DNA of 64,000 nucleotides from Candidatus Woesearchaeota archaeon (GCA_964545065.1 CAZJEO010000001.1:128663-192662); one strand, 5' to 3'. Positions 5,254-50,822 are shown, counted from the first letter of the stretch. Made by a program: numbers and translations. Notes: a model not told the origin generated them from the sequence alone.

Positions 5254-7743
5254 ATGAAAAAAATATATAAAATAGAAGGAATTACTTGTGCTAGTTGTGC
5301 TGGGCATATAGAAAGGGCCGTGAAGAAAATTAAAGGTGTAACAAATGCAAGTGTGAATTTTGCTAACAAAAAAGCATATATTGAAGGAGATTTTAATGAT
5401 AATGAGATAAAAGAATCTGTTTCTAAAATTGGTAATTATAAAGCAATATCAGAAGATGAAAAAGATAGTGAGGTTAAAAAAGAAGGAAAAGATTCTGGAA
5501 AAGAACAAACAACGACTTTTACTGTTAAAGGTTTAGATAATCCTCATTGTAGTATGACTGTTGAAAAAGCTGTTAAAAAATTGAAAGGTATTGGTAAGGT
5601 TGATATTAATATTAATACTCACAAGGCTAAAATTACTCATTCAATTCCTAAAGAGGAAATAATCAAAGCAATAAATGATGCAGGTTATGAAGTTTTGAAA
5701 GAAAGTGAAGATGAAAAAGATTCGGAAATTAAAGAGATGAACAAGGCTAAAAAAAGAATGTGGTATGCTTGGATATTTGCTTTGCCTGTTGGTATATTAA
5801 TGATTTTGGAAATGTTCACTAAATTGGAAGTTCCTTATATTGATTATATTTTTGTTTTAGCTGCTATCCCTGTTTTGTTTATTTTTGGTTGGAAGACTTA
5901 TGTTTCTGGGTTGAAGTCTGCAAGGTATCTTGCATTTAATATGGACTTCTTAATTATGCTTGGAACATTTGCAGCATTTATTACTGGGATAATCGGGTTT
6001 TTTCTTCCTATAGAAAATTATGCTGCAATAGCCGCAATGATTATGGCTTTTCATTTGACAGGGAGATATGTTGAAGCTAAGGCAAGAGGGAAAGCATCTG
6101 AAGCTATAAAAAAATTACTTGAGTTGGGTGTAAAAACTGCGGTGGTTATTAGAAATAATTCCCCAAGGGATGACTCCTCAAAGGATGACTCTGGTGAGCC
6201 GTCTGGTGAGCCTAAGGAAATTGAAATTCCTATTTCTGAAGTTAAGATTGGAGATGTGATGATTGTTAAACCAGGAGAAAAGATTCCTACAGATGGTATT
6301 GTTATTAAGGGTGAATCTGCGGTTGATGAATCAATGGTGAGTGGAGAGAGTATGCCTGTTGAAAAAATGAAGAATTCAAAAGTTATTGGAGCTACAGTTA
6401 ATCAAGATGGTGTTTTATATGTTAAGGCGGAGAAGATTGGTAAGGATACTTTTTTGTCTCAGGTTGTTAAGTTAGTTGAAGAGGCTCAAGGAAGTAAGAT
6501 TCCAATACAGGAATTTGCAGATAAGATTACTCGGTACTTTGTTCCTGTTGTTATTGTGGTAGCTGTTTTAACGATTTTCATCTGGCTTGTTTTTCCAGAA
6601 GTAATGCAAAGTATAGCTGGTTTTTTTGACTTTCTCCCTTGGATTAATTTTAATGTTGGGCATGTTGCTCTTGCATTATTTGCTGCAATAGCTGTTTTAG
6701 TTATTGCTTGTCCTTGTGCCTTGGGTCTTGCTACACCAACTGCATTAATGGTTGGTTCTGGTTTAGGAGCTGGGAAAGGTATCTTCATTAGAAGGGGGGA
6801 AGCTATTCAAACAATGAAGGAAATTAAGACTATTATGTTTGATAAAACTGGAACAATAACGAAAGGGAAACCAGAAGTTACAGATATTATTGGAGATGAA
6901 AAGCAGATCTTAAAGATAGCAGGTTCTGTTGAGAGTGTTTCAGAGCACCCTCTTTCTAAGGCAATTGTAAAAAGAGCTAAGGAAAAGAGAATTAAATTGT
7001 TAGAAGTTAAGAACTTTAAAGCTAAGAGAGGTAGAGGAATTGAAGCTAGTTTAGGAAGAAATAAAATTCTTATTGGAAATAGAAAATTAATGACTGAGAA
7101 TAAAATTAGTTTTGAAGGTTATGAAGATAGAATTATAGAACTTGAAAATGATGGTAAGACTGTTATGATTTTATCTGATAATGGCAAAGTTTTAGGGCTC
7201 ATAGCTGTTGCAGATACTTTGAAACAAGATGCTAAAAAAACTATTTCTGAATTAAAAGAAATGGGTCTTAAGACTGTTATAATTACAGGAGATAATGAAA
7301 GAACTGCTAAGGCCATTGCAAAGCAAGTTGGTATTGATTCTGTTTTAGCAGATGTGTTACCTGATGAAAAAATGAAGAAAGTTATGGAGCTTCAGAAGAC
7401 AGGAATGGTGGCTTTTGTTGGCGATGGTATTAATGATGCTCCTGCTTTGAAGCAGGCAAATGTTGGAATTGCGATTGGAACTGGAACAGATATTGCAATT
7501 GAATCGGGAGATATAATTCTTGCTAAGGGTGATTTGCAGGGAGTTGTTTCTGCAATTAAGTTAAGCAAGGAAACATTCAAGAAAATAAAACAAAACTTGT
7601 TCTGGGCTTTTGGTTATAATATTGTAGCTATCCCTCTTGCGATAATTGGAGTTTTGCATCCTGTGATTGCTGAGATAGCAATGGCGACTTCTTCATTGAC
7701 TGTTGTGGGGAATGCTAATCTTTTGAGAAGGAAGAAGATTTAG
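5254..7743 (+). CDS. copA: copper-translocating P1B-type ATPase with two N-terminal HMA domains
   Basis: [13 protein letters not shown] motif, [19 protein letters not shown] and GDGINDAP motifs. 829 aa. Confidence 0.9.
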
Positions 7744-7923
7744 GAAGAGAAGGGAATTTTAATTTGTTGGGAAGGGAGAGGATATAGGAAGAGAGGGAGA
7801 GGGGAATTTATGGATACCAAAATCTTTAATAAATCCTTAAAATAGCAGTTTTAAATTGATTTTATGCGGTTTATCTACAAAAGATAACGATAAATTTATA
7901 AATGCCCTTATCATGAATAATTT

Positions 7924-9162
7924 ATGATAATTGAAACATCTGTGGAAAATTATTTATCGATTAAAGAAAAAGTTACACTTAGCCTTGACTCTGGTTCTAG
8001 CAAAAAACTTTCAAATAATTTAGTAGAAATGCCTAAAAACGAAAGATTGCTCAAGTCTGCAGTAATTTACGGAGCAAATGCATCAGGAAAATCTAACATA
8101 ATAAAATCGGTCTTTTTTATTTGGAACATGGTTAAAAACTCTCACTTATTTAATGTTGATGTAAAAATTCCCCGAGTTCCCTTTAAATTAGAAGAAAGCT
8201 ATCTAAAAAAACCAAGTAAATTTGAGATAATATTTATTCATAATAAAATAAAATACAAATATGGTTTTTCATGTGATAATGATAAATTCATTGAAGAATA
8301 TTTATATTACTGGCCTCAAGGAAGAGAGTCTAAAATTTTTAGTAGAAAAAACTCAAAAGAATTTGATTTCACAATTGATAGAAAACAACAACAATTAATT
8401 AAATCGCAAACAAATGAAAATGTGCTATATCTTTCGAGAGCAACTCAATTAGGATATCAAGGAACCAAAGAAGCTTATGATTTTATAATAAATAATCTTG
8501 TTATAAATTATAGTCCCATGTGGGAAGAGATTACAATTAAAAAAATATATGAAGATAATAAATTAAAAAATAAGATTATTGAAATACTTCAAAAAGCAGA
8601 TTTTGGTGGCATAACAGACATTAAAGTTATCAAAGATAAAAGAAAAGTTGGAGGAATTGAGTTTAAATTTGAAAAAGAAAAGATACTATCCAATCCATTA
8701 AAACCAGAAGAACAAGAATTCTATGATTTCAAATTTGTTCATAAGACTAAAAGTGGAAAATTAATTGATTTTGCATTCAATGAAGAATCTAATGGTACGA
8801 GAAGGACACTCTCCATGCTTGGGCCAATATTTGAAATATTAGAACTAGGAAAAGTCGCATTCATTGATGAATTTGAATTAAATTTGCATTCCAACATTAC
8901 AAAGTTTTTAATAAAACTTTTTAATAGTAAATTAAATAAAAAAAATGCTCAATTAATTTTTACAACTCACGACACAACTTTGTTAGATAATGAAATATTT
9001 AGAAGAGATCAAATATATATTTGTTCAAAAGATAAAAATAACTCAAGTAAATTAAATTCTTATATCGATTACAATCTTAGAGAAGATTCTGACTTTGAAA
9101 GAGCTTATTTAAATGGAAGAGTGGGAGGACTTCCTTTTATAGATGAAACTTTATTCAATTAA
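7924..9162 (+). CDS. AAA_21-type ATPase (AbiLi/RloA-like) of a two-gene module
   Basis: Walker A VIYGANASGKSNIIKS. ABC-like Walker B/D-loop LIFTTHDTTLLD. About 400 aa, the typical partner of RloB proteins. Confidence 0.7.
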   Translation: MIIETSVENYLSIKEKVTLSLDSGSSKKLSNNLVEMPKNERLLKSAVIYGANASGKSNIIKSVFFIWNMVKNSHLFNVDVKIPRVPFKLEESYLKKPSKFEIIFIHNKIKYKYGFSCDNDKFIEEYLYYWPQGRESKIFSRKNSKEFDFTIDRKQQQLIKSQTNENVLYLSRATQLGYQGTKEAYDFIINNLVINYSPMWEEITIKKIYEDNKLKNKIIEILQKADFGGITDIKVIKDKRKVGGIEFKFEKEKILSNPLKPEEQEFYDFKFVHKTKSGKLIDFAFNEESNGTRRTLSMLGPIFEILELGKVAFIDEFELNLHSNITKFLIKLFNSKLNKKNAQLIFTTHDTTLLDNEIFRRDQIYICSKDKNNSSKLNSYIDYNLREDSDFERAYLNGRVGGLPFIDETLFN

Positions 9163-9164
9163 AA

Positions 9165-11525: not shown

Positions 11526-11547
11526 TAATTTCTAATAATCTCTTCCA

Positions 11548-11621: not shown

Positions 11622-12521
11622 ATGCTAAGAAAAATACTGCTAATGGGAATTATTGTGATATTTCTCATGTCAATAGTGCCAATAGTATCGGCAATGGAGC
11701 TTACAGGATATTGTGTTAAGTGTAAAGAAAAGACAGAAATGAACAAGGCAGAACTGGTTGAAGGCATAGCCTCGGATGCAGGGTTAACAAAAGCCGATGC
11801 AAGAAGATCCAAATATTCAAATATTGTACTTAAACGAGGCTCAGTTTTTTCTCCTGATAACGGGGAAGACATCCCACAAATGAACAAGGCAGAACTAATT
11901 GAAGCAATTGCTTCATCTGCGAATCTTCCAGAAGCTGATACCGAAAGAGCTTTAGACGCCTTTGTCGGCGCCACTACTAAATCGCTAAGGGGCGGTAATA
12001 GAGTAGCTTTAGTCGGATTCGGTTCTTTCTCAATTTCTAAGCGTAAAGCAAGGACCGGAAGAAATCCTCAAGCAGTTGTAAATGGAGCCGTTAACCCAGG
12101 AATAGAACTTGTAAGAGGAGTTGTAGAATTCAAAGCTGGCGACAGACCTTTTCTGCCTAATGTGGAATATACTACAACAGAAGATATTGCAACAGAAATG
12201 GTCAGTATGAGTCTTAGTGGAGATATCGGCGAACAACAAGGTCTCACCGAAGAACAAGCGAGGCAGTTCATGGACAGTTTCGTAAATGTGACCCTGAGCA
12301 CACTCCAAACAGGAATAGCAGTAAATGTGGGTGAGGATTTTGGAACATTTAGTGTTACATTGAGCAATGCTAAAATTCATGAAACAAAAAATGGAAAAAC
12401 AATTCGGACGCCACCAATAGGACATGTTGACCATGGGAAAGACATACCACTTATAGGTGATAAACTTCAAAAGGTGGTTAAATTCAAAGCTGGCGCAGAT
12501 CTTGCCAAGACGGTGGCTTAG
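11622..12521 (+). CDS. exported tandem HU/IHF-like (DNABII) DNA-binding protein with an N-terminal signal peptide
   Basis: Signal peptide [25 protein letters not shown] truncated HU N-segment ([12 protein letters not shown]) is followed by a full HU domain ([12 protein letters not shown]...LVGFGSF...RTGRNPQ) and a second HU-like domain ([13 protein letters not shown]...GEDFGTFSV...VKFKAGADL). Local GC is clearly higher than in neighbouring genes. Confidence 0.6.
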
Positions 12522-13112: not shown

Positions 13113-13225
13113 TGAGGAAACCCTTCCCTTCCCAAAACCCTTAAATATCCCCTTCCCCTAAAACAATCATGGCAGAGGCGAAGCTCAATGCATTAAAACT
13201 TGGTTTAGCTGGAGGAATAGTTGGA
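13113..13225. repeat. ~110-nt direct repeat (left copy): CT-rich promoter-like tract plus the first ~19 codons of the 14023 gene
   Basis: About 85% identical to 13966-14082, including ATGGCAGAGGCGAAGCT...GGAATAGTTGGAG. Confidence 0.6.
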
Positions 13226-13309
13226 GTATTACTTCTTTCTACAAATAAACATCGCTCTTCTTTTTTTATCAAAAAAGACGGTTTCAAGAACCTTGAAATC
13301 CTTAGATAA
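13169..13309 (+). pseudogene. truncated duplicate (46 codons) of the small membrane-protein gene at 14023
   Basis: Encodes MAEAKLNALKLGLAGGIVG then diverges to a stop. Its 3' part overlaps the antisense methyltransferase gene. Confidence 0.45.
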
Positions 13310-13921
13310 ACTCTTTTTTATCTTTTCAACAGGATAAATGAACTCATCATATCTATCTTTTTCAATTTGATAAAGACCGCTTTTTACTTTCTTAAAATAT
13401 GTTGTATCCCATGTTAATTTATTTCCATTAACAATCATATTGTCATAAACATATCCTGTTGGAGTTTCTTCAAGTTTTACTGTCTGTTTTTTCATGTCTT
13501 CCAAATGCTTCTGGGTGCGCATATCAAAGATGAATAATCCATTATCGTTAAGATGGTCATAAGAATGTTTGAATGTTGACTCCCAATTTTTGAATGGTTT
13601 AACCTCATTAATACATTCGTGCACTGAAAAAATTACATCAAATTTCTCGTTGATTTTGAAACTATCCATGTTTTGAACAACAAGATTAGCATTAGGGGTT
13701 ATCTTTTTTGCAGTTTTAATGTATTCTTTGTTAAGATCTAATCCAACTTTCTTAAATTTTTTGAAATGAAAAAGTACAACACCTAATCCAACACCGAGCT
13801 CTAAAACTGTTTTGGATTTTGGATGATATTTCCTAATAGCGTTAAGAACTCTATCAGCTCTTACTTTAGCTGCTTTCTTGTCAATATTCTTCTCCCATAT
13901 TTTAGTCAAGTCAGATACCAT
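13229..13921 (-). CDS. class I SAM-dependent methyltransferase
   Basis: Motif I VLELGVGLGVV. About 230 aa with a Rossmann-fold MTase layout. Confidence 0.65.
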   Translation of the reverse strand: MVSDLTKIWEKNIDKKAAKVRADRVLNAIRKYHPKSKTVLELGVGLGVVLFHFKKFKKVGLDLNKEYIKTAKKITPNANLVVQNMDSFKINEKFDVIFSVHECINEVKPFKNWESTFKHSYDHLNDNGLFIFDMRTQKHLEDMKKQTVKLEETPTGYVYDNMIVNGNKLTWDTTYFKKVKSGLYQIEKDRYDEFIYPVEKIKKSLSKDFKVLETVFFDKKRRAMFICRKK

Positions 13922-13965: not shown

Positions 13966-14082
13966 TTTCCTACCCTCTCCTCTCCCAAAACTCTTAAATA
14001 TCCCCTTCCCCATAACATAAACATGGCAGAGGCGAAGCTTAATGCATTAAAACTTGGTTTAGCTGGCGGGATAGTTGGAGCC
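13966..14082. repeat. ~110-nt direct repeat (right copy), the promoter and 5' end of the intact gene
   Basis: See the left copy. Confidence 0.6.
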
Positions 14083-17088: not shown

Positions 17089-19124
17089 TGGTAGGAAAAG
17101 TGAGGAAGAGGGATGGGAGTGTTGTTCTTTTTCAGCATGAGAAAATTACAGAAGCGATCTGGAAAGCTGTAAAGGCTGTTGGGGGGCATGACAGAGAAAA
17201 GGCAGAATACTTGTCTAATTTAGTAACAAGTAATCTTGGAAAAAAGCATGGGGATTTAGAGATTCCTGAAGTAGAAGAAGTCCAGGATATGGTTGAAAAA
17301 ACTTTAATTGAAGAGGGGCATGCAAAGGTAGCTAAAGCGTATATTCTTTATCGTAAGAGTCATGAAGAACTCAGGCAGGTTAAAGGATTGTTTGATACAA
17401 TTGAAGCTGTTGACGATTATATAGGATTAAATGATTGGATGGTGAAAGAGAATTCAAACATGGCTTTTTCCTTGCAGGGTTTAAACAATTATGTTGCTAC
17501 TAAGATTATAAGTAATTACTGGATTAGAAGAATTTATCCGGAAGCCATAAGAGAGGCACATGAAAACACTGATTTTCATATACATGATTTAGGAACTCTC
17601 GGGGCTTATTGTGTTGGGTGGGACTTAAAAGATTTATTAATTACTGGGTTTAAGGGTGTGCCTGGAAAGCTAGCGTGCAAGCCTCCAAAACATTTCAGTG
17701 CTGCCTTGGGCCAAATCGTTAATTTCTTTTACACATTGCAAGGAGAAAGTGCAGGAGCCCAAGCATTTTCAAATTTTGATACTCTTTTAGCTCCTTTTGT
17801 AAGGTATGATAATTTAGATTATCAGCAAGTTAAAAAACTTATCAAATCTTTTTTATTTAATATGGCTGTTCCCACAAGGGTTGGATTCCAGACACCTTTT
17901 ACAAATCTTACAATGGATTTGAAAGTTCCAGGATACATGAAAGATGAACCAGTTATTGTTGATGGAAAAATCCAAAAAGAAACATACAAAGAATTTGAAA
18001 CAGAAATGGACATGATTAACAGAGGTTTTGCAGAAGCTATGTTGGAAGGAGATTCTGAGGGAAGGGTCTTTACTTTTCCTATTCCGACTTATAATATTAC
18101 AAAAGATTTTGACTGGGATAATCCAATTTATGAACCACTCTGGGAGATGACTGCAAAATATGGTATACCTTATTTTTCTAATTTTATTAATTCAGATATG
18201 AAACCAGAAGATGCGAGAAGTATGTGTTGTAGATTAAGAATCGACAATACTGAATTAAGAAAAAGGGGAGGGGGGCTTTTTGGAAGTAATCCTTTGACAG
18301 GTTCAATAGGAGTTGTTACAATAAATATGGCTAGAATAGGATTTACTTCCATAGATGAAAAGATTTTCTTAGAAAAACTTTCAAATTTAATGGAACTTGC
18401 GAAAGAAAGTTTAGAGATAAAGAGAAAAGCACTGGAAAAATTTACAGAGATTGGATTATATCCTTATTCTCAGTTTTATTTAAGGAATTTAAAAAAAGCA
18501 TTTGGAGAATATTGGAAAAATCATTTTTCTACAATTGGGTTATTAGGAATGAACGAGGCAATTGTTAATTTTATGCCTGGGGAAAATATAGCCACAGAAA
18601 AAGGAAAAGGGTTTACAATGAAAGTTCTGGAATTTATGAGAGAAAAATTAGAAGAATATCAGAAAGAGACAGGAAATATATATAATCTTGAAGCGACTCC
18701 TGGGGAAGGAACAGCGTATAGATTTGCGAGAAATGATAAAAAAAGATTTGGGAGAATTATTGTGGCTAATGAGAAAATGGTAAGGAGCAATGAAGCGAAA
18801 CCTTATTATACGAATTCGACGCAACTTCCTGTGAATTATACTGATGATTTATTTGAAGCATTAGAATTACAGGATGACTTGCAAACACAATATACCGGGG
18901 GAACAGTTCTTCATAGTTTTGTTGGTGAAAAACTAGATAAAGAAGGAGTAAAATTATTGATTAAAAAAATTGCAGAAAGTTTCAAACTTCCTTATTTTAC
19001 ACTAACTCCAACTTTTTCAATCTGTCCTAAACATGGCTATCTTCATGGGGAGCATGAATATTGTCCTAAGTGTGATCAAGAAAATGGATATGTTGAAAAA
19101 CAGATTGAAACTAAATTTAAATAG
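17088..19124 (+). CDS. nrdD: anaerobic (class III) ribonucleoside-triphosphate reductase large protein, lacking the glycyl-radical C-terminus
   Basis: N-terminal ATP-cone (VRKRDGSVVLFQHEKI). Class III core. C-terminal Cys/His zinc-binding segment CPKHG...CPKCD. The ORF ends just before the expected glycyl-radical motif. Confidence 0.85.
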   Translation: MVGKVRKRDGSVVLFQHEKITEAIWKAVKAVGGHDREKAEYLSNLVTSNLGKKHGDLEIPEVEEVQDMVEKTLIEEGHAKVAKAYILYRKSHEELRQVKGLFDTIEAVDDYIGLNDWMVKENSNMAFSLQGLNNYVATKIISNYWIRRIYPEAIREAHENTDFHIHDLGTLGAYCVGWDLKDLLITGFKGVPGKLACKPPKHFSAALGQIVNFFYTLQGESAGAQAFSNFDTLLAPFVRYDNLDYQQVKKLIKSFLFNMAVPTRVGFQTPFTNLTMDLKVPGYMKDEPVIVDGKIQKETYKEFETEMDMINRGFAEAMLEGDSEGRVFTFPIPTYNITKDFDWDNPIYEPLWEMTAKYGIPYFSNFINSDMKPEDARSMCCRLRIDNTELRKRGGGLFGSNPLTGSIGVVTINMARIGFTSIDEKIFLEKLSNLMELAKESLEIKRKALEKFTEIGLYPYSQFYLRNLKKAFGEYWKNHFSTIGLLGMNEAIVNFMPGENIATEKGKGFTMKVLEFMREKLEEYQKETGNIYNLEATPGEGTAYRFARNDKKRFGRIIVANEKMVRSNEAKPYYTNSTQLPVNYTDDLFEALELQDDLQTQYTGGTVLHSFVGEKLDKEGVKLLIKKIAESFKLPYFTLTPTFSICPKHGYLHGEHEYCPKCDQENGYVEKQIETKFK

Positions 19125-38524: not shown

Positions 38525-38559
38525 AGTGCAATAATTCTTTTAAAGAATCTTTCTAATTA
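38525..38559 (+). promoter_or_regulatory. 35-nt promoter-like repeat AGTGCAATAATTCTTTTAAAGAATCTTTCTAATTA (copy 1)
   Basis: Exact second copy at 38962-38996, with a partial copy (TAGTGCAATAAT) at 39329-39340. Contains a palindromic TTCTTTTAAAGAA around a TATA-like centre, just upstream of the starts at 38565 and 39004. Confidence 0.5.
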
Positions 38560-38564
38560 TTTTT

Positions 38565-38963
38565 ATGGCGAAAAAAAGTTTTTCATTATCTAAAGACCAA
38601 GTTCCGCTAGGAGTAAAAGTTCATGTCCCTGGAAATTCAAGAGGGATTGTTAAGTTAATTAAAGATTATATTGAATTTGTTTCATTCTATTATGCAGACG
38701 ATGGAGAAAAATTTAATCCTCCAGAAAATGCTAGGTTCTTGCCAAGTGAACAAATTGATTTAGAAGATACTCGAGATAATACAACATATGTCTTGTTGAG
38801 AAGAGGCCTAAAACGAGTAATAAGTATGCATGGCAAATTGCTTGATGATGGTTCTAAATCAAAGAAATTTAGAGAACCAATTTACCCTCGGGGCAAAGTA
38901 AAACTTGCTCAAGTTGGTGGAACATTTTATAGTAGCTATGAATTTGGGCAACCAAAACATTAG
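38565..38963 (+). CDS. hypothetical protein
   Basis: 132-aa ORF preceded by the 35-nt repeat. Confidence 0.4.
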   Translation: MAKKSFSLSKDQVPLGVKVHVPGNSRGIVKLIKDYIEFVSFYYADDGEKFNPPENARFLPSEQIDLEDTRDNTTYVLLRRGLKRVISMHGKLLDDGSKSKKFREPIYPRGKVKLAQVGGTFYSSYEFGQPKH

Positions 38964-38996
38964 TGCAATAATTCTTTTAAAGAATCTTTCTAATTA
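38962..38996 (+). promoter_or_regulatory. 35-nt promoter-like repeat (copy 2)
   Basis: Exact duplicate of 38525-38559. Confidence 0.5.
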
Positions 38997-39003
38997 AATT
39001 AAT

Positions 39004-39309
39004 ATGATAAGCTGGGAAGGATATGCTTTAAGCCTCTGCGAATTTGAGGTTTTAGTAACAGATAAATCTCATAAAAGATATGGGCAGAGAGGAAGGATAA
39101 CAGCACACCATGGTTGTAGGGGAAAAGGAAGTTATGATATTAAATTTGTGGACGACGAGGGAATAGAAGTTGAAGAAGAATTTTCTGGGAAATATGGTGA
39201 TGATCCACAAGGTACAAAAATGTTTTATAGGTATGATAATGATTTGGGAGCGATTTTTGATAAAGAGGGTCGAGGACCAAATAGTTTGGCTAGAGAGCTG
39301 TTGAGGTAA
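39004..39309 (+). CDS. hypothetical protein
   Basis: 101-aa ORF preceded by the 35-nt repeat. Confidence 0.4.
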   Translation: MISWEGYALSLCEFEVLVTDKSHKRYGQRGRITAHHGCRGKGSYDIKFVDDEGIEVEEEFSGKYGDDPQGTKMFYRYDNDLGAIFDKEGRGPNSLARELLR

Positions 39310-44745: not shown

Positions 44746-45360
44746 TCAATCATCCAAAAGAGGCACAAATACAAAACCAGGAAATTCTTTTTTTAAGGTT
44801 AACTTGTTGTTTATTTTCTTGAATGATGTTAATGATTTATCTTGGCCAATCCCCAAGGGTGCGACAATGATTCCATTGTTTTTTAGCTGTGAAATAAGTT
44901 TGGGAGGAATTTCTTGATATCCTGCACTAATAATTATTCTATCAAAAGGGGCTTGCTCTGGTAAACCTTGCATTCCATTTTTATTGTAAACTTTGACATT
45001 GTTGTAGTTGGCTAAGGACTTTCTTGAGTGCTCTGCCAGTTGTTTTATTCTTTCAATTCCATAAACTTTTCCCTTATTTCCTATTATTTCTGAAATTAGG
45101 GCTAAAACATAACCGCTTCCAGAACCTATCTCTAAAACTTTCTGTCCTTTTTTTAAATCAAGGAGCGAGAGCATCATTGCGATTGTGTATGGTTGAGAAA
45201 TTGTTTGAGTTTGTGCTATTGGTAATGCAATATCTTCATAAGCATGTTTTTTTAATTCATTAGGTAAAAAATCTTCTCTTTTAACTTTTTCAAAAGCTGC
45301 CAGGATTTGGGCTGAAAAACCCCTTTGTTTTAGGGATTGGATGAGTTGGGTTTTGTTCAT
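44746..45360 (-). CDS. pcm: protein-L-isoaspartate O-methyltransferase
   Basis: VLEIGSGSGYVLALISE motif I and PIMT family length. Confidence 0.85.
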   Translation of the reverse strand: MNKTQLIQSLKQRGFSAQILAAFEKVKREDFLPNELKKHAYEDIALPIAQTQTISQPYTIAMMLSLLDLKKGQKVLEIGSGSGYVLALISEIIGNKGKVYGIERIKQLAEHSRKSLANYNNVKVYNKNGMQGLPEQAPFDRIIISAGYQEIPPKLISQLKNNGIIVAPLGIGQDKSLTSFKKINNKLTLKKEFPGFVFVPLLDD

Positions 45361-45556
45361 GTAATTGATAGGAAAAGGAGATAGATAAATTTATTGGATA
45401 TTAGCTGCTTCTAAGATTAATGGCTCAACATCGGCTTTCAGACACGATGTTTCGCTAAGAATATAATTAATGTGAAAGAAATTTATTACGCTGATTATTA
45501 GATTATCAGTTTATTAATTTGCGAATGTTAATGAGCAAGAATTTTTTATTATCAAA

Positions 45557-45804
45557 CCTTCAAACTAACTATCTTACTAATTCCATCATGCATTTGCAGA
45601 CAACCCGCTGGTTTTCTTTACTCAAGCCCACACTCGTTTCTGTGGATTAGACTCGTGTAAACTCTCGGACTTTCCTCCCCCCAAGGGATGATTCTGGTGA
45701 ACCTCAAAGCATTGAACCCGATTTCTAATGCAATCCGGTGAAATCGCGAGCATGATGGGAATTTATACCTTTAAACTAACTATTTTTGAGATGCCATCAT
45801 GCAT
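45557..45804. mobile_element. mini-element copy B at the smc 3' end: a 37-nt direct duplication encoding the smc C-terminus, flanking a ~174-nt insert with the CCCCAAGGGATGA core
   Basis: DR1 45557-45593 and DR2 45768-45804 (28/37 nt identical). Both translate on the minus strand to MHDGISKIVSLKV-stop. The insert shares GCCCACACTC, CGTGTAAACTCT and the core with copy C. Confidence 0.65.
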
Positions 45805-48618
45805 GCTAACACCATAAAGATTTGTAGCGTTTGAGATAATTTGGTCGTTGTGAGATATTATGATATATTGTCCTTTTTGCATGTATTTATTTAGGAGATT
45901 TGCAAGGCGTTCTGAGTTTCGCTTGTCCAGAGCTGCGTCAATTTCATCAAGTACATAAAAATAATATGGATTTAATTCTTGTATTGCAAAAATAAGTGAT
46001 AAAGCGACAAGGGTTTGTTCTCCTCCTGAAAGTGATTTGACATCAAAGTATTTTCCGTGTCCTGTTTTGACTGTTATGTTGATTCCTGCGACAAAAGGAT
46101 CTTTTCTATCTTCTATTTCAAGATATACTTGTCCTTTTTCACTTAATTGAGAAAAGATGCGAGAGAAGTTTTCATTGAGTGCTGTTAGTGTTTTGACAAA
46201 TGTCTTTTTCTTTTTTATATCAATTTCATGAATTATTTTCAAGATGCTCTCTTTTTCTTTTGCTATGATTTCTGTTTTCTCTTTTATTAAATCATATTCT
46301 TTTTTTACATGGTCATAAACCTCCAGAGAACGCATATTTACAGAACCGATTCGCGACATTATTTCTTGAGCTTTAGTTAGTTTTATTAAAAGTGCATCTT
46401 TTCCTGCTTTTATTATTTCAATGTTCGGGAAGCCGAGCATTTCTGTTTCAAGATTTTCCACTTCTGCATTAACTCTTGCTCTATCTATCTTTAAATTGTT
46501 CATTTGTTGTTCAATATTATAAATTGAATTTTTATTTGTAGAAAGAGTTGATTCACTTTCACGGATGTTTTTTTGTAGGGCGTCTCTTTCTGAAATTAAT
46601 TTCTGGAACTTCTTAATAAGCTCTTGCTCTTGTGCTTTCTTTTTTTCAAGTGATTCTTCTTTTTCGTTCATTTCGCTATTTAGCGCTTTAAGTTCTTGAA
46701 TTAAATCTTCTTCTTCTCTATTTAATTGCTTCAAGGAAATCTTTGAACGGTCAAATTCTCTTTGCTTAAATGAAATTTCTGAATTAATGTTTTCTTTTGT
46801 TCTCAAGGAAATCTCTTGAATCTCTATACGCGCTGTTTCATATTTCTGTTCTATGTTTGAAGTCTCATCAAAGTTTATCTCAAGGTTCTTTTTTCTTTTT
46901 GATAATTCTGTAAGTTCTCCTTTCAATATATCTATTTTTTCCTGAAGAGCTTTAATCTGATTTTTCTTTTCGTCTATGTTTAAAAGATTGATCAAATCTA
47001 ACTCTCTTTTTGAAACTTCTGAAGTGATTTGTTCTACTTGTTCTTTTATGATATCTCTTTGAGAATACAACTCGCTCAATTTTTTATCTGAATCCTCTAT
47101 CTCTTGTTTTAGATTTTCAATTTTTGGCAGTGTTTCTTTATGGATTGATTCAATATGTCCAGAAGTTATTTTACTTTTACAAATAGGGCAAACATCCATC
47201 TTAGCTATTTTTTCAATTAATTTGTTTTGTTTGTCGATTTCATATTCGTTTGCCGCAGAAATTTTTTCCATCTGAATTTCTTTTTTAGCCAGTGAATCCA
47301 AAAGGTCTTTTCTTTCTGCCAGCGAAACCTTTAGAGAGTGGAGTTTTTCTTCATTAGTGTTTCTATCAAATAAATCTTTTGAAAAAGACCTTATTTGCTT
47401 TAGAAGAAATTCTGATTCATTTGTATAATTTTGTAAGAGAATAGTTTTGTCGCTGATTCGTTCTTTGATTGATTTGAATTCTGATTTTATTGTATAGAAC
47501 TTTTTTCTTTGATCTTCTAATTCCTCTAGCTGTTTTTTCTTGTCTTCGATTTGCTTCTGGGTTTTTGAAGTGCTGGGGGAACTATTTAATTCTTTTATTG
47601 CTAATTCATTCTCATTTAAGGTTTGTGAGAACTCTTGTTTTTGCCTAGAGATTTCTGTAAGTTTTGATTCATAATTTTCAATTCTTACATTTATTCCTGC
47701 GAGTTCTGCTCTTATGTTTGCTATTTCCTGGTTGAGTTTTTCTTGTTCTAAGCCAGTTGATTTTTGGATTGTAGAATTTATTGAATTTATTTTTGATTCT
47801 GTTGTATCAATGGTAGTTTGTATTCCAAGATTTGTTTTTTTTATTTTTTCTATATTCTTGTTCTTTTTTGCTATTTCTTCTTCTATGGAAAGCGACTCTT
47901 TTTTCTTTTTGACTAAATCGTGGTAGATTATGCTTGCCTTATATCTCTTGATATCTTTTTCAAGTTTTTTGAATCTCAAGGCTTGCTGTCGTTCTTTTTC
48001 TAAATTATTCAAATAGCTTGTCCGTTCTCGTAAAATCGCAAGGGCTTCTTTTATTTTTTCTTCTGTTTTATCTAGTTCTTTTAGTGATCTTGTTTTACGG
48101 GTTTCATAGATTGCAATTCCTGAAACTTCTTCGATTATTTTTCTTCGTTCTTCTGACTGCATTCTTACTAAATTTTGGATTTCTCCCTGAAGGATTATGT
48201 TAAACCCATTAGGGTCTATACCTGCTTGAGCTAATAATGCCAAAACTTCTTGCCGTGTTTTTGTTTCTCCATTGATCTTGTAAATGCTCTGGCCATTTCT
48301 TCTTACGATTCTTTTTATTGAGATTTCGTTTTGGTCTATTGAAAAGGTTTTATCAGAATTGTCAAATGTCATTTCAACTGCTGCTTCTTTTGCTGGAGAG
48401 GCGGCTTTTGTTCCTAGGAAGATTAGGTTTTTTGCTTTGGCTGCCCGCATTGACTTTATGCTCAGTCTCCCCAACACAAAACACAGGGCATCTGAGATAT
48501 TGCTTTTTCCGTTTCCGTTTGGACCGAGGATGACATTTATTCCTGGTGTGAAAGGCACTTCTGTTTTTTTTACAAAGCTCTTGAATCCGTGCATCACTAA
48601 TCTTTTTATGTGGGTCAT
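45763..48618 (-). CDS. smc: SMC-family chromosome segregation ATPase
   Basis: N-terminal Walker A GPNGNGKSNISDAL. Long coiled coils. C-terminal LSGGEQTLVALSLIFAIQ...VLDEIDAALD. Confidence 0.85.
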   Translation of the reverse strand: MTHIKRLVMHGFKSFVKKTEVPFTPGINVILGPNGNGKSNISDALCFVLGRLSIKSMRAAKAKNLIFLGTKAASPAKEAAVEMTFDNSDKTFSIDQNEISIKRIVRRNGQSIYKINGETKTRQEVLALLAQAGIDPNGFNIILQGEIQNLVRMQSEERRKIIEEVSGIAIYETRKTRSLKELDKTEEKIKEALAILRERTSYLNNLEKERQQALRFKKLEKDIKRYKASIIYHDLVKKKKESLSIEEEIAKKNKNIEKIKKTNLGIQTTIDTTESKINSINSTIQKSTGLEQEKLNQEIANIRAELAGINVRIENYESKLTEISRQKQEFSQTLNENELAIKELNSSPSTSKTQKQIEDKKKQLEELEDQRKKFYTIKSEFKSIKERISDKTILLQNYTNESEFLLKQIRSFSKDLFDRNTNEEKLHSLKVSLAERKDLLDSLAKKEIQMEKISAANEYEIDKQNKLIEKIAKMDVCPICKSKITSGHIESIHKETLPKIENLKQEIEDSDKKLSELYSQRDIIKEQVEQITSEVSKRELDLINLLNIDEKKNQIKALQEKIDILKGELTELSKRKKNLEINFDETSNIEQKYETARIEIQEISLRTKENINSEISFKQREFDRSKISLKQLNREEEDLIQELKALNSEMNEKEESLEKKKAQEQELIKKFQKLISERDALQKNIRESESTLSTNKNSIYNIEQQMNNLKIDRARVNAEVENLETEMLGFPNIEIIKAGKDALLIKLTKAQEIMSRIGSVNMRSLEVYDHVKKEYDLIKEKTEIIAKEKESILKIIHEIDIKKKKTFVKTLTALNENFSRIFSQLSEKGQVYLEIEDRKDPFVAGINITVKTGHGKYFDVKSLSGGEQTLVALSLIFAIQELNPYYFYVLDEIDAALDKRNSERLANLLNKYMQKGQYIIISHNDQIISNATNLYGVSMHDGISKIVSLKV

Positions 48619-48663
48619 TAGTAAAAGAAAGAAAGGAGATTTTTAAAGTTTTATCGGATTTGA

Positions 48664-49332
48664 TTAAGAAAATAATTTTCTCTGCTTGTTTGCTGAAATT
48701 GCTCGTTTCCATGTTGACCATGTTTTTCTGAATATGCCTTTGTCTTCATATTTATGGGCGTGTTTTTCAAGAAATTTACAAGTTAAGGGGTCAGAGCAAT
48801 AACCAGAGCCAATGCTTTCGCCGTAAACTTTTTTTAATTTTGTCATTTCTTTTTCTCTTAAACACTTTGCTAAGATTGACGCAGCTGAAACAACTACATG
48901 ATTTTTATCTGCTTTGTGTTCGCAGGAAATTTCTAAATTAGATAGATTTTTTATTTTGGTTTTTAATAAGTCTTGCCATTTTTCTATACTGACTGAAGGA
49001 CAATCGATGACTACTTTTATTTTTTTAAAACCGCGGTTTATTTTGTTGATTATTTCTGCAGTTTTTATTGCCTCTAACTCATTTAGATTAATTCCATCAT
49101 GATTTGTTTGGTCGATTTCTTTTGGAAATGCCAAGGCCACTTCGAAAGTTTCTGCCTTTTCTTTTATTTTTTCAGAAAGAAATTCTCGTCTTTTTTGAGT
49201 TAATTGCTTGCTGTCTTTAATTCCTAATTTTTTGAATTCTTTTTCTGTTTTTTCATCTATTAAACAACCTGCGAGAATCATTGGTCCAATAACTGGACCG
49301 CGTCCTGCATCATCAATTCCTAGTGTTAACAT
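48664..49332 (-). CDS. rnhB: ribonuclease HII
   Basis: LGIDDAGRGPVIGPM catalytic motif. Likely start is the ATG at 49332 within the longer track ORF. Confidence 0.85.
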   Translation of the reverse strand: MLTLGIDDAGRGPVIGPMILAGCLIDEKTEKEFKKLGIKDSKQLTQKRREFLSEKIKEKAETFEVALAFPKEIDQTNHDGINLNELEAIKTAEIINKINRGFKKIKVVIDCPSVSIEKWQDLLKTKIKNLSNLEISCEHKADKNHVVVSAASILAKCLREKEMTKLKKVYGESIGSGYCSDPLTCKFLEKHAHKYEDKGIFRKTWSTWKRAISANKQRKLFS

Positions 49333-49437
49333 CGGGAACCTCCAGCGGGTTCTTCGCAACTCCAGCTACCCAGCAGGAAGCTGACGAATTTAATTTCAAA
49401 CATTAAGATAAAAAATCAGAGAGGTTTTTAAGGTTTG

Positions 49438-49743
49438 CTAGAATTTGTACAAATATTTTTTCACATTTTGAACTTTTCCGAATTTTATAGGAATTCCTTC
49501 TTTTTTTAAGAACGCTATTTTATTTTTTGTTCCAGAAGCAAAACCTCCGACTTCTCCATTTGAATTTATGACCCTATGACATGGCACTTGTGGGGCGTAG
49601 GGGTTTTTGTTCATTGCTGTTCCTACGGCTTGATATGCTTTTGTGTTTAGTGCTTGAGCAAGAGCTTTGTAGGTTGTGATTTTTCCTTTTGGAACTTGCC
49701 TTAACAAGGCGTAACATTTTTCTGAGAATGATTTTTGTGGCAT
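49438..49743 (-). CDS. ogt: methylated-DNA-protein-cysteine methyltransferase-like protein (C-terminal domain only)
   Basis: PCHRVINSNG active-site motif. ATG at 49743-49741 gives 101 aa (the track's longer ORF uses a GTG start). Confidence 0.7.
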   Translation of the reverse strand: MPQKSFSEKCYALLRQVPKGKITTYKALAQALNTKAYQAVGTAMNKNPYAPQVPCHRVINSNGEVGGFASGTKNKIAFLKKEGIPIKFGKVQNVKKYLYKF

Positions 49744-49895
49744 TTTGAAAATAGCGGGGGCTGCTCGAGCCCACACTCAGAGTTATTAATTGTAATTTTC
49801 TCTCTTCGTGTAAACTCTTCCCAAGGGATGACCCAAGAAGGGCCTCGGAATTTGAGTTCAAATCCCTTATTGATTTCATTTTAAAAATAGCGGGG
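49741..49895. mobile_element. mini-element copy C between tRNA-iMet and ogt: a 21-nt direct duplication (tRNA 3' end plus ogt start) flanking a 113-nt insert with the TCCCAAGGGATGACC core
   Basis: CATTTTGAAAATAGCGGGGGC at 49741-49761 and CATTTTAAAAATAGCGGGGGC at 49875-49895. Core at 49819-49833. Also contains GCCCACACTC, CGTGTAAACTCT and a T-loop-like GTTCAAATCCC. Confidence 0.65.
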
Positions 49896-49963
49896 GCGGG
49901 ATTTGAACCACGCGACCTCCGGGTTATGGGCCCGACGAGCACTCCAGACTGCTCCACCCCGCT
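49889..49963 (-). tRNA. tRNA-Met (CAT), initiator-like (A1:U72, AGCGGGG start)
   Basis: Reverse complement reads AGCGGGGTGGAGC...TCGGGCCCATAACCCGG...TTCAAATCCCGCCCCCGCT. Anticodon loop CCCATAA. Confidence 0.75.
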
Positions 49964-50047
49964 AATAATTGGTGTGTCAGATGACTTTTAAAGTTTTCTT
50001 AATCAAATAATAAAGCTTATAAGTTTAAGATTATATTCTAAAAGTAT

Positions 50048-50129
50048 GCCCAGATGGCGGAGTGGTTAACGCACTAGATTGCTAATCTAGACCCTTCGGG
50101 GTGCGTAGGTTCGAATCCTGCTCTGGGCG
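50048..50129 (+). tRNA. tRNA-Ser (anticodon GCT), type II with long variable arm
   Basis: Acceptor GCCCAGA/TCTGGGC. Anticodon stem-loop CTAGA-TTGCTAA-TCTAG. Variable arm CCCTTCGGGGTGC. T-arm GTAGGTTCGAATCCTGC. Confidence 0.8.
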
Positions 50130-50138
50130 TATATTAAA

Positions 50139-50705
50139 ATGAAATTCATTATTATTCACGGATGTCCTTCAAATGCAGAGAAAGCTATGAGCCCTGAAAC
50201 AAGGACTTATGATAAACATTGGATTCCTTGGACTAAAAGAGAATTGTCTTCAAAAGGAATTGAAGTAGAAACACCCCTTATGCCTGAACCTTGGAAACCA
50301 GATTATAATAAATTTAAAGAGGAATTTGAAAAATATAGTGTTGGAGAAGATAGTGTATTAATTGGTCATAGTTGTGGATGTTCTTTTTTAGTTAGATGGC
50401 TTGGAGAAACAAAACAAAAAATAAATAAATTGATTCTTGTGGCACCGTGGAAAATTGAAGAAGGGGCTAGTGAATCTAAAAAAGCATTTTATGAATTCTC
50501 GATTGATACAACTATCAAAGATAGAGTTAAAGAAATCACAATGTTTACTGCTAATGATGAAGATGAAGATGGGAAGAAAGGTTTGAAAATGTTTCACGAA
50601 GCTTTTGGAGGGAAAATTATTGAACTTCAAGGAAGAGGACATTACACACTGGGGGACATGGGAACAGAAGAGTTTCCCGAATTAATCAAAGAAGCAACCC
50701 AATAA
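50139..50705 (+). CDS. small alpha/beta serine hydrolase (RBBP9/YdeN-like)
   Basis: IIIHGCPS near the N-terminus and LIGHSCGCSF (GxSxG nucleophile elbow). 188 aa. Confidence 0.6.
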   Translation: MKFIIIHGCPSNAEKAMSPETRTYDKHWIPWTKRELSSKGIEVETPLMPEPWKPDYNKFKEEFEKYSVGEDSVLIGHSCGCSFLVRWLGETKQKINKLILVAPWKIEEGASESKKAFYEFSIDTTIKDRVKEITMFTANDEDEDGKKGLKMFHEAFGGKIIELQGRGHYTLGDMGTEEFPELIKEATQ

Positions 50706-50735
50706 ATCAAACTTTAATATAAAATTATATATAAT

Positions 50736-50822
50736 ATTGCTAATCTAGACCCTTCGGGGTGCCCACGGTTTCCCAAGGAGGGATGACCTCGCTTTGCTCA
50801 GCCTCGAATCCTGCTCTGGACG
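50736..50822 (+). pseudogene. partial tRNA-Ser copy (anticodon loop to 3' end) with mini-element copy D (41 nt, core TCCCAAGGAGGGATGACC) replacing the 5' T-stem
   Basis: ATTGCTAATCTAGACCCTTCGGGGTGC and TCGAATCCTGCTCTGGACG match the tRNA-Ser at 50048 (1 mismatch). The insert at 50763-50803 replaces GTAGGT. Confidence 0.65.

Follow-up and report, generated by a model that had tools for sequence, protein, structure and literature searches.

Elements that integrate into archaeal tRNA genes leave fragments of those genes behind (Sugahara et al. 2012, PMC3293823; van der Gulik et al. 2023, PMC9897764), and mobile-element integration has been linked to intron gain (Sugahara et al., PMC3293823). The inserts described here lie in a 64,000-nucleotide stretch of DNA (the window) from a tiny-celled archaeon of the Pacearchaeota (DPANN). 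They resemble elements with SSV- or pNOB8-type tyrosine integrases in their flanking tRNA direct repeats with an intact gene at one border, in repeat boundaries that fall in the anticodon or T-loop, in the presence of both 5' and 3' types, and in tandem arrays at a single tRNA. However, these inserts are 35–200 nt long or hold one ORF, and they carry no integrase. A protein gene, smc, has the same architecture at its last 13 codons and stop, and the cargo is a conserved hairpin with an inverted copy of the breakpoint.

CIMEs, described in Streptococcus, are att-flanked elements without recombination genes that span kilobases and can be traced to recognisable integrative conjugative elements. 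The inserts in this archaeon are likewise non-autonomous, have att-like repeat borders and presumably rely on functions in trans. However, we know of no autonomous partner for them. Integron attC sites and the attP(+) hairpin of CTX phage are folded single-strand attachment sites, and our inserts share with them an inverted target copy of 9–11 nt beside the cassette, a strand-specific structure and a content of one ORF or none. Because the inverted copy of the target block adjoins the cassette, a duplex imitating the chromosomal target can form by folding of one strand. In contrast to both systems, there is no linked recombinase of the IntI or Xer type, the target blocks vary by locus, and the inverted arm often accompanies hairpin cargo without being universal.

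A mini-element of about 30 nt recalls REP/RAYT and IS200/IS605-type elements in its 5' motif followed by a hairpin, its precise insertion and its strict strand bias. It differs in its intragenic copies, its variable hairpin sequence, its archaeal host and the lack of any Y1 transposase found. Rickettsia palindromic elements, which are bacterial and 100–150 bp long, are also short structured repeats that sit in frame in unrelated protein genes, as tolerated surface peptides, and in RNA genes; those described here are mutually nested GC-rich islands of 18–54 nt in an archaeal genome of 32% GC. Archaeal non-canonical tRNA introns and split tRNAs share positions in the D-, anticodon and T-loops, GC-rich helices, and the intron modules of one relative (L139). 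However, we could draw no bulge-helix-bulge here, the host gene is intact and uninterrupted, and the elements lie in displaced fragments. No description of these elements was found in the literature searched, and the original prediction that they fit no known element class is upheld.

We give a probability of roughly 0.5 to the reading that two layers of small, apparently selfish DNA are superimposed: cassettes that restore the gene end (layer 1), and a nested, strand-specific hairpin mini-element (layer 2).

Core motif and affected loci

The pattern CCCAAGG-N0-3-GATGA has five exact matches in the window (6162, 23325, 45680, 49820 and 50772), all on the plus strand; this confirms the five loci with a common core that had been proposed. 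Shuffled sequences give 0.01 by chance, and none of 100 shuffles reached five. The variants CCCAAGG(AGG)GATGA and CCCAAGGAGGGCACGAGAA form the conserved 5' half of a two-hairpin mini-element of 25–33 nt. Beyond the exact pattern there are two related copies, at 2861 and 33378 (CCCAARGAGGGCACGAGAACC plus hairpin), without gene-end duplication. The features are:

2859–2893, plus strand: family-2 mini-element TA-CCCAAAGAGGGCACGAGAACCTGCAAGCAGG-TA, intergenic, no gene-end duplication
6160–6213, plus strand: locus A, compound mini-insert in copA, 54 nt, in frame (18 codons)
23305–23323, plus strand: locus B, layer 1, displaced tRNA-Lys 5' fragment GGCTCCATAGCT, resuming at 23351–23355 as CAGCC
23324–23350, plus strand: locus B, layer 2, mini-element of 25 nt TCCCAAGGGATGACCTCTTCGAGGC plus a repeated CT
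23384–23457, plus strand: intact tRNA-Lys(UUU)
33363–33413, plus strand: in-frame insert in a NusA-like gene, an 18-nt micro-insert (ACCCAAACGGGCA..CAAGT) plus a nested 33-nt family-2 mini-element (33376–33408)
45556–45593, minus strand: displaced (distal) copy of the last 13 smc codons (MHDGISKIVSLKV) and stop
45594–45762, minus strand: locus D insert, with inverted arm, long-form hairpins and nested core insert (smc-sense strand)
45763–48618, minus strand: smc gene
49741–49761, minus strand: locus C, repeated tRNA-iMet 3' end, distal copy; 10 nt belong to the gene end and 11 nt to the flank, and the copy adjoins the MGMT start codon
49762–49876, minus strand: locus C insert, long-form trailer on the iMet-sense strand, hairpin arms 49808–49817 and 49767–49776
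49817–49845, plus strand: locus C, layer 2, 25-nt TCCCAAGGGATGACCCAAGAAGGGC (49819–49843) between two CT dinucleotides
49887–49964, minus strand: intact initiator tRNA-Met, A1:U72, archaeal type
50047–50130, plus strand: intact tRNA-Ser(GCU)
50139–50705, plus strand: single-ORF cargo of the Ser_hydrolase family, lying after tRNA-Ser and before its displaced 3' half
50736–50822, plus strand: locus E, 3' half of tRNA-Ser in displaced form, starting at position 32 of the anticodon loop

Where it overlaps the window, a second, independently assembled version of this genome (L207/L208) has the identical sequence, so the core inserts are not an assembly artefact. About 11 of 11 mini-element copies lie on the plus strand, two of them in minus-strand gene contexts; this count covers the window and L207, about 74 kb in a single region. 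The extra motifs GCCCACACTC and CGTGTAAACTCT, originally placed in the copy at 23325, are carried by the copies at 45680 and 49820. A T-loop-like tail had been assigned to two copies, and is clear at 49856–66 and not clear elsewhere.

Duplicated gene ends and the long-form hairpin

The duplications beside the core copies measure 12 nt exact, or 15 nt with one mismatch, at the tRNA-Lys 5' end (23309–23323 and 23381–23395); 21 nt (95%) at the tRNA-iMet 3' end and flank (49741–61 and 49877–97); 27 nt exact (50736–62) plus 34 nt at 79% (50795–828) at tRNA-Ser; and 38 nt (82%) at the smc end (45556–93 and 45767–804). The claim that every intergenic core copy is accompanied by a duplication thus holds at these sites (12, 21, 27+ and 38 nt) and fails for the related intergenic copy at 2861. 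The tRNA-Lys 5' fragment is preceded by its inverted copy, giving the palindrome AGCTATGG-CT-CCATAGCT. At locus C a T-loop palindrome, GGAATTTGA-GT-TCAAATCCC (49847–49866), lies next to the duplicated flank. The entire locus C insert is missing in the relative L001, which supports the proposal that these are genuine insertions.

At smc both end copies encode an identical peptide. The present last 13 codons (45767–45804) are a synonymously recoded copy (Ser TCA vs AGT, among others), and the codon usage of the displaced copy agrees with orthologues. The insert contains an inverted arm (45750–45758) complementary to the start of both smc copies, a long-form helix (arms 45655–45664 and 45624–45633) and a nested compound core insert of 41 nt on the plus strand (45670–45710). 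Duplications of the smc end recur in L141, L167 and L202 with the same ATGCATGAYGG breakpoint. The Ser codon switch between AGY and TCN is seen in the window and L202, and the inverted arm is missing at smc in L141 and in L167. A diversity-generating retroelement was considered here and rejected: the copies differ at C/A, C/T, TCA/AGT and G/A rather than in the adenine-specific way of such elements, the peptide is the same, and the window ORFs include no reverse transcriptase.

Of 94 tRNA genes in about 800 kb of relatives, 24 are accompanied, 35–192 nt away, by an exact repeat of 11 nt or more from their own end. The tRNA fragments begin in D-, anticodon or T-loops, and the duplicated termini run from the T-loop to the 3' end, from the D-arm to the 5' end, from the anticodon loop to the 3' end, or comprise the last codons of smc. 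The intact tRNA-Lys, iMet, Ser and Leu genes that adjoin the displaced fragments are intron-free and score as normal tRNAs. The arrangement shows the hallmark of integrase-type insertion, a tRNA-segment direct repeat at both borders with the intact gene at one. Two earlier suggestions are borne out: the gene end is regenerated, and the duplications are of the att-like kind, not the target-site duplications of a transposase.

The usual layer 1 cargo is an irregular hairpin of 50–130 nt that folds only in the gene-sense strand, and sometimes a single ORF. Arrays of single-ORF cassettes come after tRNA-Ser; in L001 the place of the tRNA-Ser cargo is taken by GNAT, then a tRNA 3'-half copy, then APH. 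The long-form helix has 10 bp with a GA/GA cap at both ends. Among 16 copies 91.9% of cells are paired and 8 of 10 pairs show compensatory changes; the observed pairing was reached in 0 of 500 shuffles, and slid controls gave 30–47%. Two conserved U.G columns would be C.A if read from the opposite strand.

This strong covariation, together with a constant orientation relative to the host gene, is what would be expected if the inserts were cis-acting RNA modules of benefit to the host (acting in 3'-end processing, termination or stability, or as a co-transcribed small RNA), with the repeats selected as part of the fold. Further points in that direction are an oligo-T after the distal copy, covariation, in L002, L132 and L143, between the distal acceptor copy and the acceptor stem of the tRNA itself, and a minimum-free-energy fold in which the distal copy is paired to the 5' acceptor strand. 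However, layer 1 is patchy among related Pacearchaeota. Trailers occur on about 14 of 40 tRNA-Ser(GCU) genes and about 8 of 42 iMet genes, the others being empty; about two thirds of these orthologous genes, close relatives included, are without the module. The same module also occurs at unrelated targets, no Rfam family matches, and the nested insertions and the internal tandem duplications (L178) look like neutral decay. We therefore consider such a selected role unlikely.

Partial tRNA gene copies from integrating elements are well documented in archaea (PMC9897764, PMC3293823), and the anticodon-loop-type repeats with ORF cargo behind tRNA-Ser would suit ordinary scars of full-size, integrase-encoding viruses or plasmids that had entered tRNA genes and then lost almost their whole length under strong deletion pressure. 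Against this, the small inserts are uniform and always retain the complete conserved hairpin, rather than showing random deletion end points. One cargo family occurs at different targets, smc included, and no integrase-bearing insert is present among about 95 tRNA genes in the annotated loci and families listed. Erosion of conventional elements is thus an improbable explanation in our view.

The nested mini-element

The core is a separate mini-insert of 25–33 nt, secondarily nested in layer 1 scars, and the loci provide snapshots of tRNA gene disruption. At locus B it splits the tRNA-Lys 5' fragment between positions 12 and 13, and the relative L213 has a homologous degenerate fragment upstream of tRNA-Lys with CAA in place of the mini-element. 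In L128 the locus C trailer and iMet duplication are present and the 27 nt that include the mini-element are missing; a further empty site is found in L211. At locus E the T-loop is broken after GGTT by a 33-nt mini-element (50771–50803). L001 has an orthologous tRNA-Ser fragment with a different mini-element copy, and in L207 the matching T-loop position of a tRNA-Leu fragment is occupied by an insert.

Insertion is precise, with no duplication or one of 2 nt only (CT or TA), and the T-loop copies have no flanking 2-nt repeat. The hairpin is 98.5% paired, with compensatory changes in three of four pairs. The hairpin stems vary among the copies of a single genome, which does not resemble a recent transposable-element burst. 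The motif and hairpin, the strand bias and the lack of target duplication are traits of REP/RAYT- or IS200/IS605-like elements. A MITE was rejected: the aligned copies have no terminal inverted repeats and no fixed target-site duplication, the 2-nt CT or TA occurring at some copies only.

The core-bearing copy in copA, predicted to lie in frame, is an exact 18-codon insertion relative to A. fulgidus CopA, whose solved structures (3j08, 7r0g) lack exactly those 18 residues; the Pfam E1-E2_ATPase match begins directly after it. It starts with the core, behind which come internal tandem repeats (GGATGACTC.. and CTGGTGAGCC). In-frame copies also occur in the NusA-like gene and a nuclease gene, and no duplications accompany any of the three. 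Across relatives the NusA-like gene forms a series from an empty site to the 18-mer to the 18-mer with the nested 33-mer. The micro-insert is translated, since its peptide TLKGTS is kept in lineages only 63% identical.

The original prediction treated the CCCAAGGGATGA core as defining one family of miniature integrative elements whose own insertion duplicates and regenerates the gene end. Every exact-core copy except that in copA does adjoin a gene-end duplication. However, the majority of layer 1 examples have no core: scars without it are found in L128 and L213, and core-less duplications or trailers at tRNA genes in L178, L184, L141 and L163 and at smc in L141, L167 and L202. Conversely, no duplication accompanies the core in copA, the NusA-like gene, the nuclease gene or at 2861, which refutes the link between core and duplication, though not the reality of either. 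With the core unit a 25-nt nested piece at loci B and C, and with the empty sites contradicting a single family, we regard that interpretation as very unlikely.

The inserts occupy D-, anticodon and T-loops, which are also the sites of non-canonical archaeal introns, and this raises the question of whether these are RNA-level elements, either bulge-helix-bulge introns or pieces of split or permuted tRNAs whose fragments serve as functional exons through the tRNA splicing endonuclease. The long-form helix forms on one strand only and includes G.U pairs, as an RNA would, the canonical tRNA-Ser intron in L139 consists of three modules resembling the mini-element, and intron gain has been tied to mobile-element integration (PMC3293823). 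However, each affected tRNA has an intact, intron-free copy, and no complementary leader and trailer pairs were found. A manual test revealed no consistent 3-nt bulge, 4-bp helix and 3-nt bulge across copies, either at the foot of the long form or flanking the mini-elements, the NusA micro-insert is translated, and the architecture is identical at smc. An RNA-level origin thus appears quite unlikely. As specific candidates, an archaeal bulge-helix-bulge intron was rejected on a 4-bp central helix in only 2 of 8 long-form copies (manual inspection, which also took in loci B, C and L128), and a split or permuted gene on the adjacent intact tRNA-Lys, iMet, Ser and Leu genes.

Enzyme searches and a possible mechanism

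A recombinase search along the suggested lines was negative over the sequence covered: no integrase, transposase, reverse transcriptase or Y1/HUH enzyme is encoded by the window ORFs or appears in the existing annotation of eight loci. No recombinase occurs among 25 listed of 70 families (46 ORFs near tRNAs), and about 84 kb of this genome contain no Y1 (HUH) transposase. The inserts are non-coding or contain a hydrolase, GNAT or APH. The proposed covariance-model check assigned no Rfam family to them: only three tRNAs match at gathering score, and E<=10 gave nothing relevant in 45300–51000. Viral contigs gave no hit to the pattern of the family-2 core.

Under the two-layer reading, small cassettes would recombine into short, highly conserved gene-end blocks (in tRNA genes the T-loop, D-arm and anticodon loop, in smc the MHDG codons). 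The cassette would supply its own gene-end copy and displace the old end as a direct repeat, in a Campbell-type, att-like manner; the gene would stay intact because the cassette carries that copy. Recombination may be carried out by host homologous recombination or by a trans-acting recombinase. The mini-element would land in tolerant places, namely the D- and T-loops of displaced tRNA fragments, trailers and in-frame protein surface loops, and may spread by a single-strand, hairpin-dependent mode.

There is an outside chance that these are an undescribed DPANN class of miniature, structure-defined integrative cassettes with a folded single-strand target mimic, the hairpin element being a proto-intron in tRNA loops. 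If so, the cassettes attach through the inverted arm and target copy, restoring the gene end (cf. attC and CTX-phage attP), and, together with the hairpin element, provide a living example of the proposed origin of non-canonical tRNA introns and split tRNA genes.

Against the cassette reading stand the lack of a nearby enzyme, of a circular or free form of any cassette among those observed, and of a universal inverted arm; inserts of 35–200 nt are also below the size possible for double-stranded circles. A tandem duplication without cargo at the end of copA also fits a duplication-first origin. At locus C the proximal flank resembles an ancestral MGMT start, so a local duplication is equally possible there, with no need for a foreign donor.

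The core motif and the mini-element

The core motif CCCAAGG-N0-3-GATGA occurs five times in the window (6162, 23325, 45680, 49820 and 50772), always on the + strand and against an expectation of 0.01, in agreement with the five loci of the original prediction (copA, tRNA-Lys, tRNA-iMet, smc and tRNA-Ser; loci A to E). The copies at 45680 and 49820 have GCCCACACTC and CGTGTAAACTCT in common. A repeat search of the window identified a sister family (family 2) at 2861 and 33378, consisting of CCCAARGAGGGCACGAGAACC followed by a hairpin. A second, independent assembly of this genome (L207/L208) is identical to the window wherever they overlap and adds 10 kb on each side. Since two independent assemblies agree, the inserts and duplications described here are not assembly artefacts.

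Orthologous loci were fetched via homologues of RNase HII, and 80 more loci were added. In these relatives we found empty sites, confirming that the sequences are real insertions. In L001, whose RNase HII is 91% identical, the MGMT start codon directly follows tRNA-iMet and the 136-nt addition of locus C is absent. The related locus L128 retains the trailer after iMet together with the duplicated tRNA end and has 27 nt fewer, exactly TCCCAAGGGATGACCCAAGAAGGGC plus the repeated CT. In L213 a degenerate displaced 5' fragment of tRNA-Lys lies ~140 nt upstream of its gene, with CAA in place of the 25-nt TCCC...GGC unit of the window's fragment. A NusA-like gene provides a graded series. The site is empty in most relatives (138 aa). 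Several lineages, of which some have no more than 63% identity, carry a micro-insert of 18 nt, ACCC-loop-GGGCACAAGT, which is read as the peptide TLKGTS. The same 18-mer holds a nested 33-nt family-2 element in the window and a different nested piece of 36 nt in L210. From the empty sites and this series we infer that the core belongs to a 25–33-nt unit, the mini-element, which inserts on its own.

The mini-element begins with a conserved (T)CCCAAGG(AGG)G segment that can fold into a small CCC/GGG hairpin, followed by a linker (AUGA or CACGAGAA) and a second hairpin whose stem varies by copy through compensatory changes (CCTC/GAGG, CCTGC/GCAGG, CCTGT/ACAGG, CCC/GGG, CTCAAC/GTTGAG). Across the family-2 copies aligned to the model, pairing extends to 98.5% of cells and the second stem has two-sided changes at three of its four pairs, a score reached by 0 of 500 shuffles. 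Insertion is precise. The flanking CT is repeated at loci B and C, as is TA at 2861 and L133; T-loop copies have no repeated dinucleotide at their flanks. Compared with solved CopA structures, the core copy in copA adds exactly 18 codons as a clean insertion.

Four further copies lie within 10 kb to the right of the window in the same genome. Two sit within the trailer and the displaced 3' fragment that accompany tRNA-Leu, and one of these two follows the GGTT of the T-loop exactly as at locus E. The other two form a tandem pair, in frame, in a staphylococcal-nuclease-like gene; such nesting of the element in its own kind is also seen in NusA and in the copA compound. All ~11 copies are on the + strand, though loci C and D stand among minus-strand genes. 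Checked by eye, the reverse strand too can be read without stops in at least one frame, thus coding constraint is no obvious cause of the bias. A family-2 covariance model matched only tRNA-Ser-linked, already known copies in 800 kb of relatives, which indicates that the mini-element expanded in this genome. One copy in a relative (L133, 9110–9200, minus strand) is a 33-nt family-2 mini-element in the D-loop (GCA-TA-[...]-TA-ATGG) of a displaced tRNA-Ser 5' half (positions 1–38), 970 nt upstream of the intact gene.

Several known signals were considered and rejected on reading the sequences. GGGAUGA is one mismatch from a C box, yet its strand carries no D box. The hammerhead core CUGAUGA...GAAA and the non-bulged strand of a canonical K-turn are absent, and no consistent bulge-helix-bulge intron motif can be drawn. 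Differences between the repeats are not adenine-specific, as diversity-generating retroelement repeats would require. A Shine-Dalgarno sequence with start codon (AAGGAGGGATG) would have too short a spacing, and copies lie inside genes; the core frame differs among copA, NusA and the nuclease, excluding a conserved peptide; and no hairpin derived from the flanking target was seen. The original prediction had proposed a structured-RNA search, and Rfam 15 returned no family other than tRNAs, both at gathering score and at E<=10. A scan of a 596-Gb contig database with the 14-base core pattern, which is too short for such a search, gave only chance matches in unrelated bacteria (L007–L086, left out of the analysis), and the family-2 core had no match in viral contigs.

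Duplicated gene ends and their cargo

The duplicated gene ends are present as originally described:

Locus B: tRNA-Lys 5' end, 12 nt (15 with one mismatch)
Locus C: tRNA-iMet 3' end and flank, 21 nt
Locus D: smc end, 38 nt at 82%
Locus E: tRNA-Ser, 27 nt and a second piece

They form a layer separate from the core. Using ARAGORN and exact matching over the window and 86 loci, we found 24 of 94 tRNA genes with their own 5' or 3' end copied (at least 11 nt) 35–192 nt away. These are Ser-GCU, Ser-GGA/CGA, iMet and Lys genes, mostly without any core. The original prediction had held that one core-defined family causes the duplications. Empty sites contradict this, as does the lack of a core at most duplications, and we regard a single family of that kind as highly improbable.

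In a wider search, fragments start in the D-loop (5' type, 12–14 nt), in the T-loop (3' type, 16–22 nt) or in the anticodon loop (position 32 to the 3' end, ~50 nt), the last type having ORF cargo. A trailer with a distal copy follows ~14 of 40 tRNA-Ser(GCU) genes and ~8 of 42 iMet genes; the rest are empty. In L001 (2420–4290, minus strand) tRNA-Ser(GCU) is followed by an array of a GNAT acetyltransferase, an exact 3'-half tRNA copy, an APH-type kinase and a tRNA fragment with a mini-element, and the orthologous place in the window holds tRNA-Ser, one hydrolase ORF and a 3' half. Arrays bearing ORFs would be explained if the duplications were scars of large elements, a reading that we consider unlikely as it leaves the uniform small hairpin cargo unexplained. 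Long-form trailers in another relative (L178, 3735–3865 and 6585–6876) are tandemly duplicated inside, at tRNA-Ser, or repeated twice after tRNA-iMet, whose 3' end occurs three times within 1.8 kb.

The last 14 codons of smc are also present twice in L141, L167 and L202, beginning at an identical ATGCATGAYGG. The peptide encoded is the same for both copies. In the window and L202 they differ in serine codon family (AGT vs TCA), a difference that drift of a dead copy cannot produce and that argues for an origin of the two smc ends in different lineages. Of the two copies in the window, the displaced one resembles orthologues. The proximal flank at locus C resembles an ancestral MGMT start (ATGAAA..ATC, shared by L001, L127 and L128), so local duplication is sufficient there. 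The copA end (7708–7795) is a gene-end duplication without an insert: the last 11 codons, together with 8 nt of flanking sequence, occur twice in tandem (44 nt, 80% identity), each copy closes with TAG, and no cargo lies between. A 5'-type duplication with one-ORF cargo was also observed, in which a 104-nt direct repeat (80%; 13123–13226 and 13977–14080) spanning the promoter region of a small membrane-protein gene and its first ~22 codons lies on either side of one methyltransferase ORF on the minus strand (13229–13921).

Most trailers contain a long irregular hairpin. For its 10-bp basal helix we took both arms of 16 copies, located at tRNA-Ser, tRNA-iMet, smc and elsewhere; GAAA was substituted for the apical part, which is AU-rich and variable. 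In this alignment 91.9% of cells pair, with compensatory double changes at eight of ten pairs (27 cells). The covariation score (0.648 vs 0.297 shuffled) was reached by 0 of 500 shuffles, and sliding the partner 1–3 columns lowered pairing to 30–47%. Two columns are U.G in 11–12 of the 16 copies and would be C.A mismatches on the opposite strand, thus the fold belongs to the host-gene-sense strand, as RNA or as that DNA strand. GA dinucleotides bracket both ends of the helix (xGA-helix-GAR ... xGA-helix-GAG) in the long-form copies inspected. A structural scan for helix plus GA was noisy (199 matches vs 90 in shuffled sequence) and served only to choose extra long-form copies by eye. An RNA module beneficial to the host would account for the covariation and for distal acceptor copies that co-vary; however, it would leave the patchy distribution unexplained and is unlikely.

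Many inserts, though not all, hold a 9–11-nt inverted repeat of the sequence block at which the duplicated segment begins. Against the distal copy this arm forms a tight palindrome: GGAATTTGA-GT-TCAAATCCC at locus C, AGCTATGG-CT-CCATAGCT at locus B and GAATCGAAC-TT-GTTCGAT in L002. At locus D the arm is at the other end of the cargo (GCATGATGG, 45750–58), complementary to the start of both smc copies.

Insert positions in tRNA loops could also point to introns or split tRNA pieces acting at the RNA level. A relative (L139, 6422–6654, minus strand) has a tRNA-Ser(GCU) with a 150-nt intron at the canonical position, made of three tandem TTCCCTTCGGGTTGAGAA plus hairpin modules that are similar to the mini-element, and several other Pacearchaeota tRNA-Ser genes have canonical introns of 26–91 nt. 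Against this, a bulge-helix-bulge cannot be drawn consistently, intact genes are present in every case and the NusA insert is kept as peptide, which makes such an origin very unlikely.

Possible routes of insertion

The duplications would be accounted for if small cassettes carrying a gene-end copy integrate by recombination within a conserved block. Consistent with this are the end-restoring direct repeats with breakpoints in short, highly conserved blocks, the foreign gene-proximal copy at smc, the patchy presence, the recurrence of one cargo family at different targets and the one-ORF cassettes in tandem. The logic is that of tRNA-targeting integrative elements (Sugahara et al. 2012, PMC3293823; van der Gulik et al. 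2023, PMC9897764), but the cassettes are too small for an integrase. No integrase, transposase, reverse transcriptase or HUH enzyme was identified in the window, in the annotated loci of relatives or among the top families listed for 46 ORFs near tRNAs, which would leave host homologous recombination on short conserved blocks, or catalysis in trans. With the inverted arm, a single strand could fold back into a duplex that copies the target, by analogy with integron attC sites and the CTX-phage attP.

For the mini-element, precise insertion, strict strand orientation, a conserved motif beside a hairpin that keeps its structure while its sequence varies, and self-nesting suggest single-strand, hairpin-dependent spread, resembling the mode of REP and IS200/IS605-type elements, although their enzyme was not found here. 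We rate the system as att-type integration scars together with short hairpin repeats, both of known kinds, in a new variant; the chance that a distinct mechanism underlies it is about one in six.

It has long been asked how archaeal tRNA genes gained non-canonical introns, fragments and split halves. Mobile-element integration at tRNA genes is the leading idea and has so far rested on few snapshots, for example Caldiarchaeum. Here one lineage gives many independent and polymorphic events resolved to the nucleotide, with gene ends duplicated around structured cargo and tiny hairpin inserts exactly in D- and T-loops; the same modules recur within a canonical intron in a relative. End-restoring insertion of the kind seen at tRNA genes can also target a protein gene (smc), and GC-rich elements of 18–54 nt have repeatedly been absorbed in frame by essential proteins of a minimal genome. 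A dedicated mechanism, if there is one, would define a new kind of very small mobile element; otherwise the system clearly illustrates how recombination drives micro-insertion in DPANN genomes. In either case annotation of tRNAs and genes in these lineages calls for caution. Full-text literature searches found only general work on tRNA fragments, introns and split tRNAs, and a term search of a 208-genome Nanobdellota preprint found no mention of integrases, insertion sequences, mobile elements or tRNA fragments.

The host region

The window (GC ~32%) contains an archaeal initiator tRNA with an A1:U72 pair, a housekeeping cluster (RNA polymerase, NusA, S12, S7, EF-2, EF-1a) and other core genes including smc, RNase HII, ribonucleotide reductases and copA. 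By homologues of its RNase HII, thioredoxin and NusA, the window belongs among Pacearchaeota / Nanoarchaeota (DPANN) metagenome-assembled genomes; its source contig measures 207,866 nt. Three ORFs are unusual:

20002–22209: 735-aa ORF fusing MtrA-like, thymidylate synthase, pterin-binding and dCMP deaminase parts
23584–25848: ribonucleotide reductase with a fused CYTH domain
11622–12521: 299-aa protein with two bacterial HU-type DNA-binding domains

A 42-nt repeat (93%; 38525–38566 and 38962–39003) directly precedes two adjacent small ORFs of unassigned family (38565–38963 and 39004–39309) and may be a duplicated promoter or 5' region of paralogues. The motif AAACATTTAAAAATC..TTATATCAAA upstream of the genes for S12, EF-1alpha and a Toprim protein (33545, 39350 and 41274) is probably a strong promoter or leader signal of the lineage. 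Finally, a 69-nt GC-rich island lies within the anaerobic ribonucleotide reductase gene (17644–17712), and its minus strand has CCCAAGGCAGCAC, which bears a weak likeness to the core.
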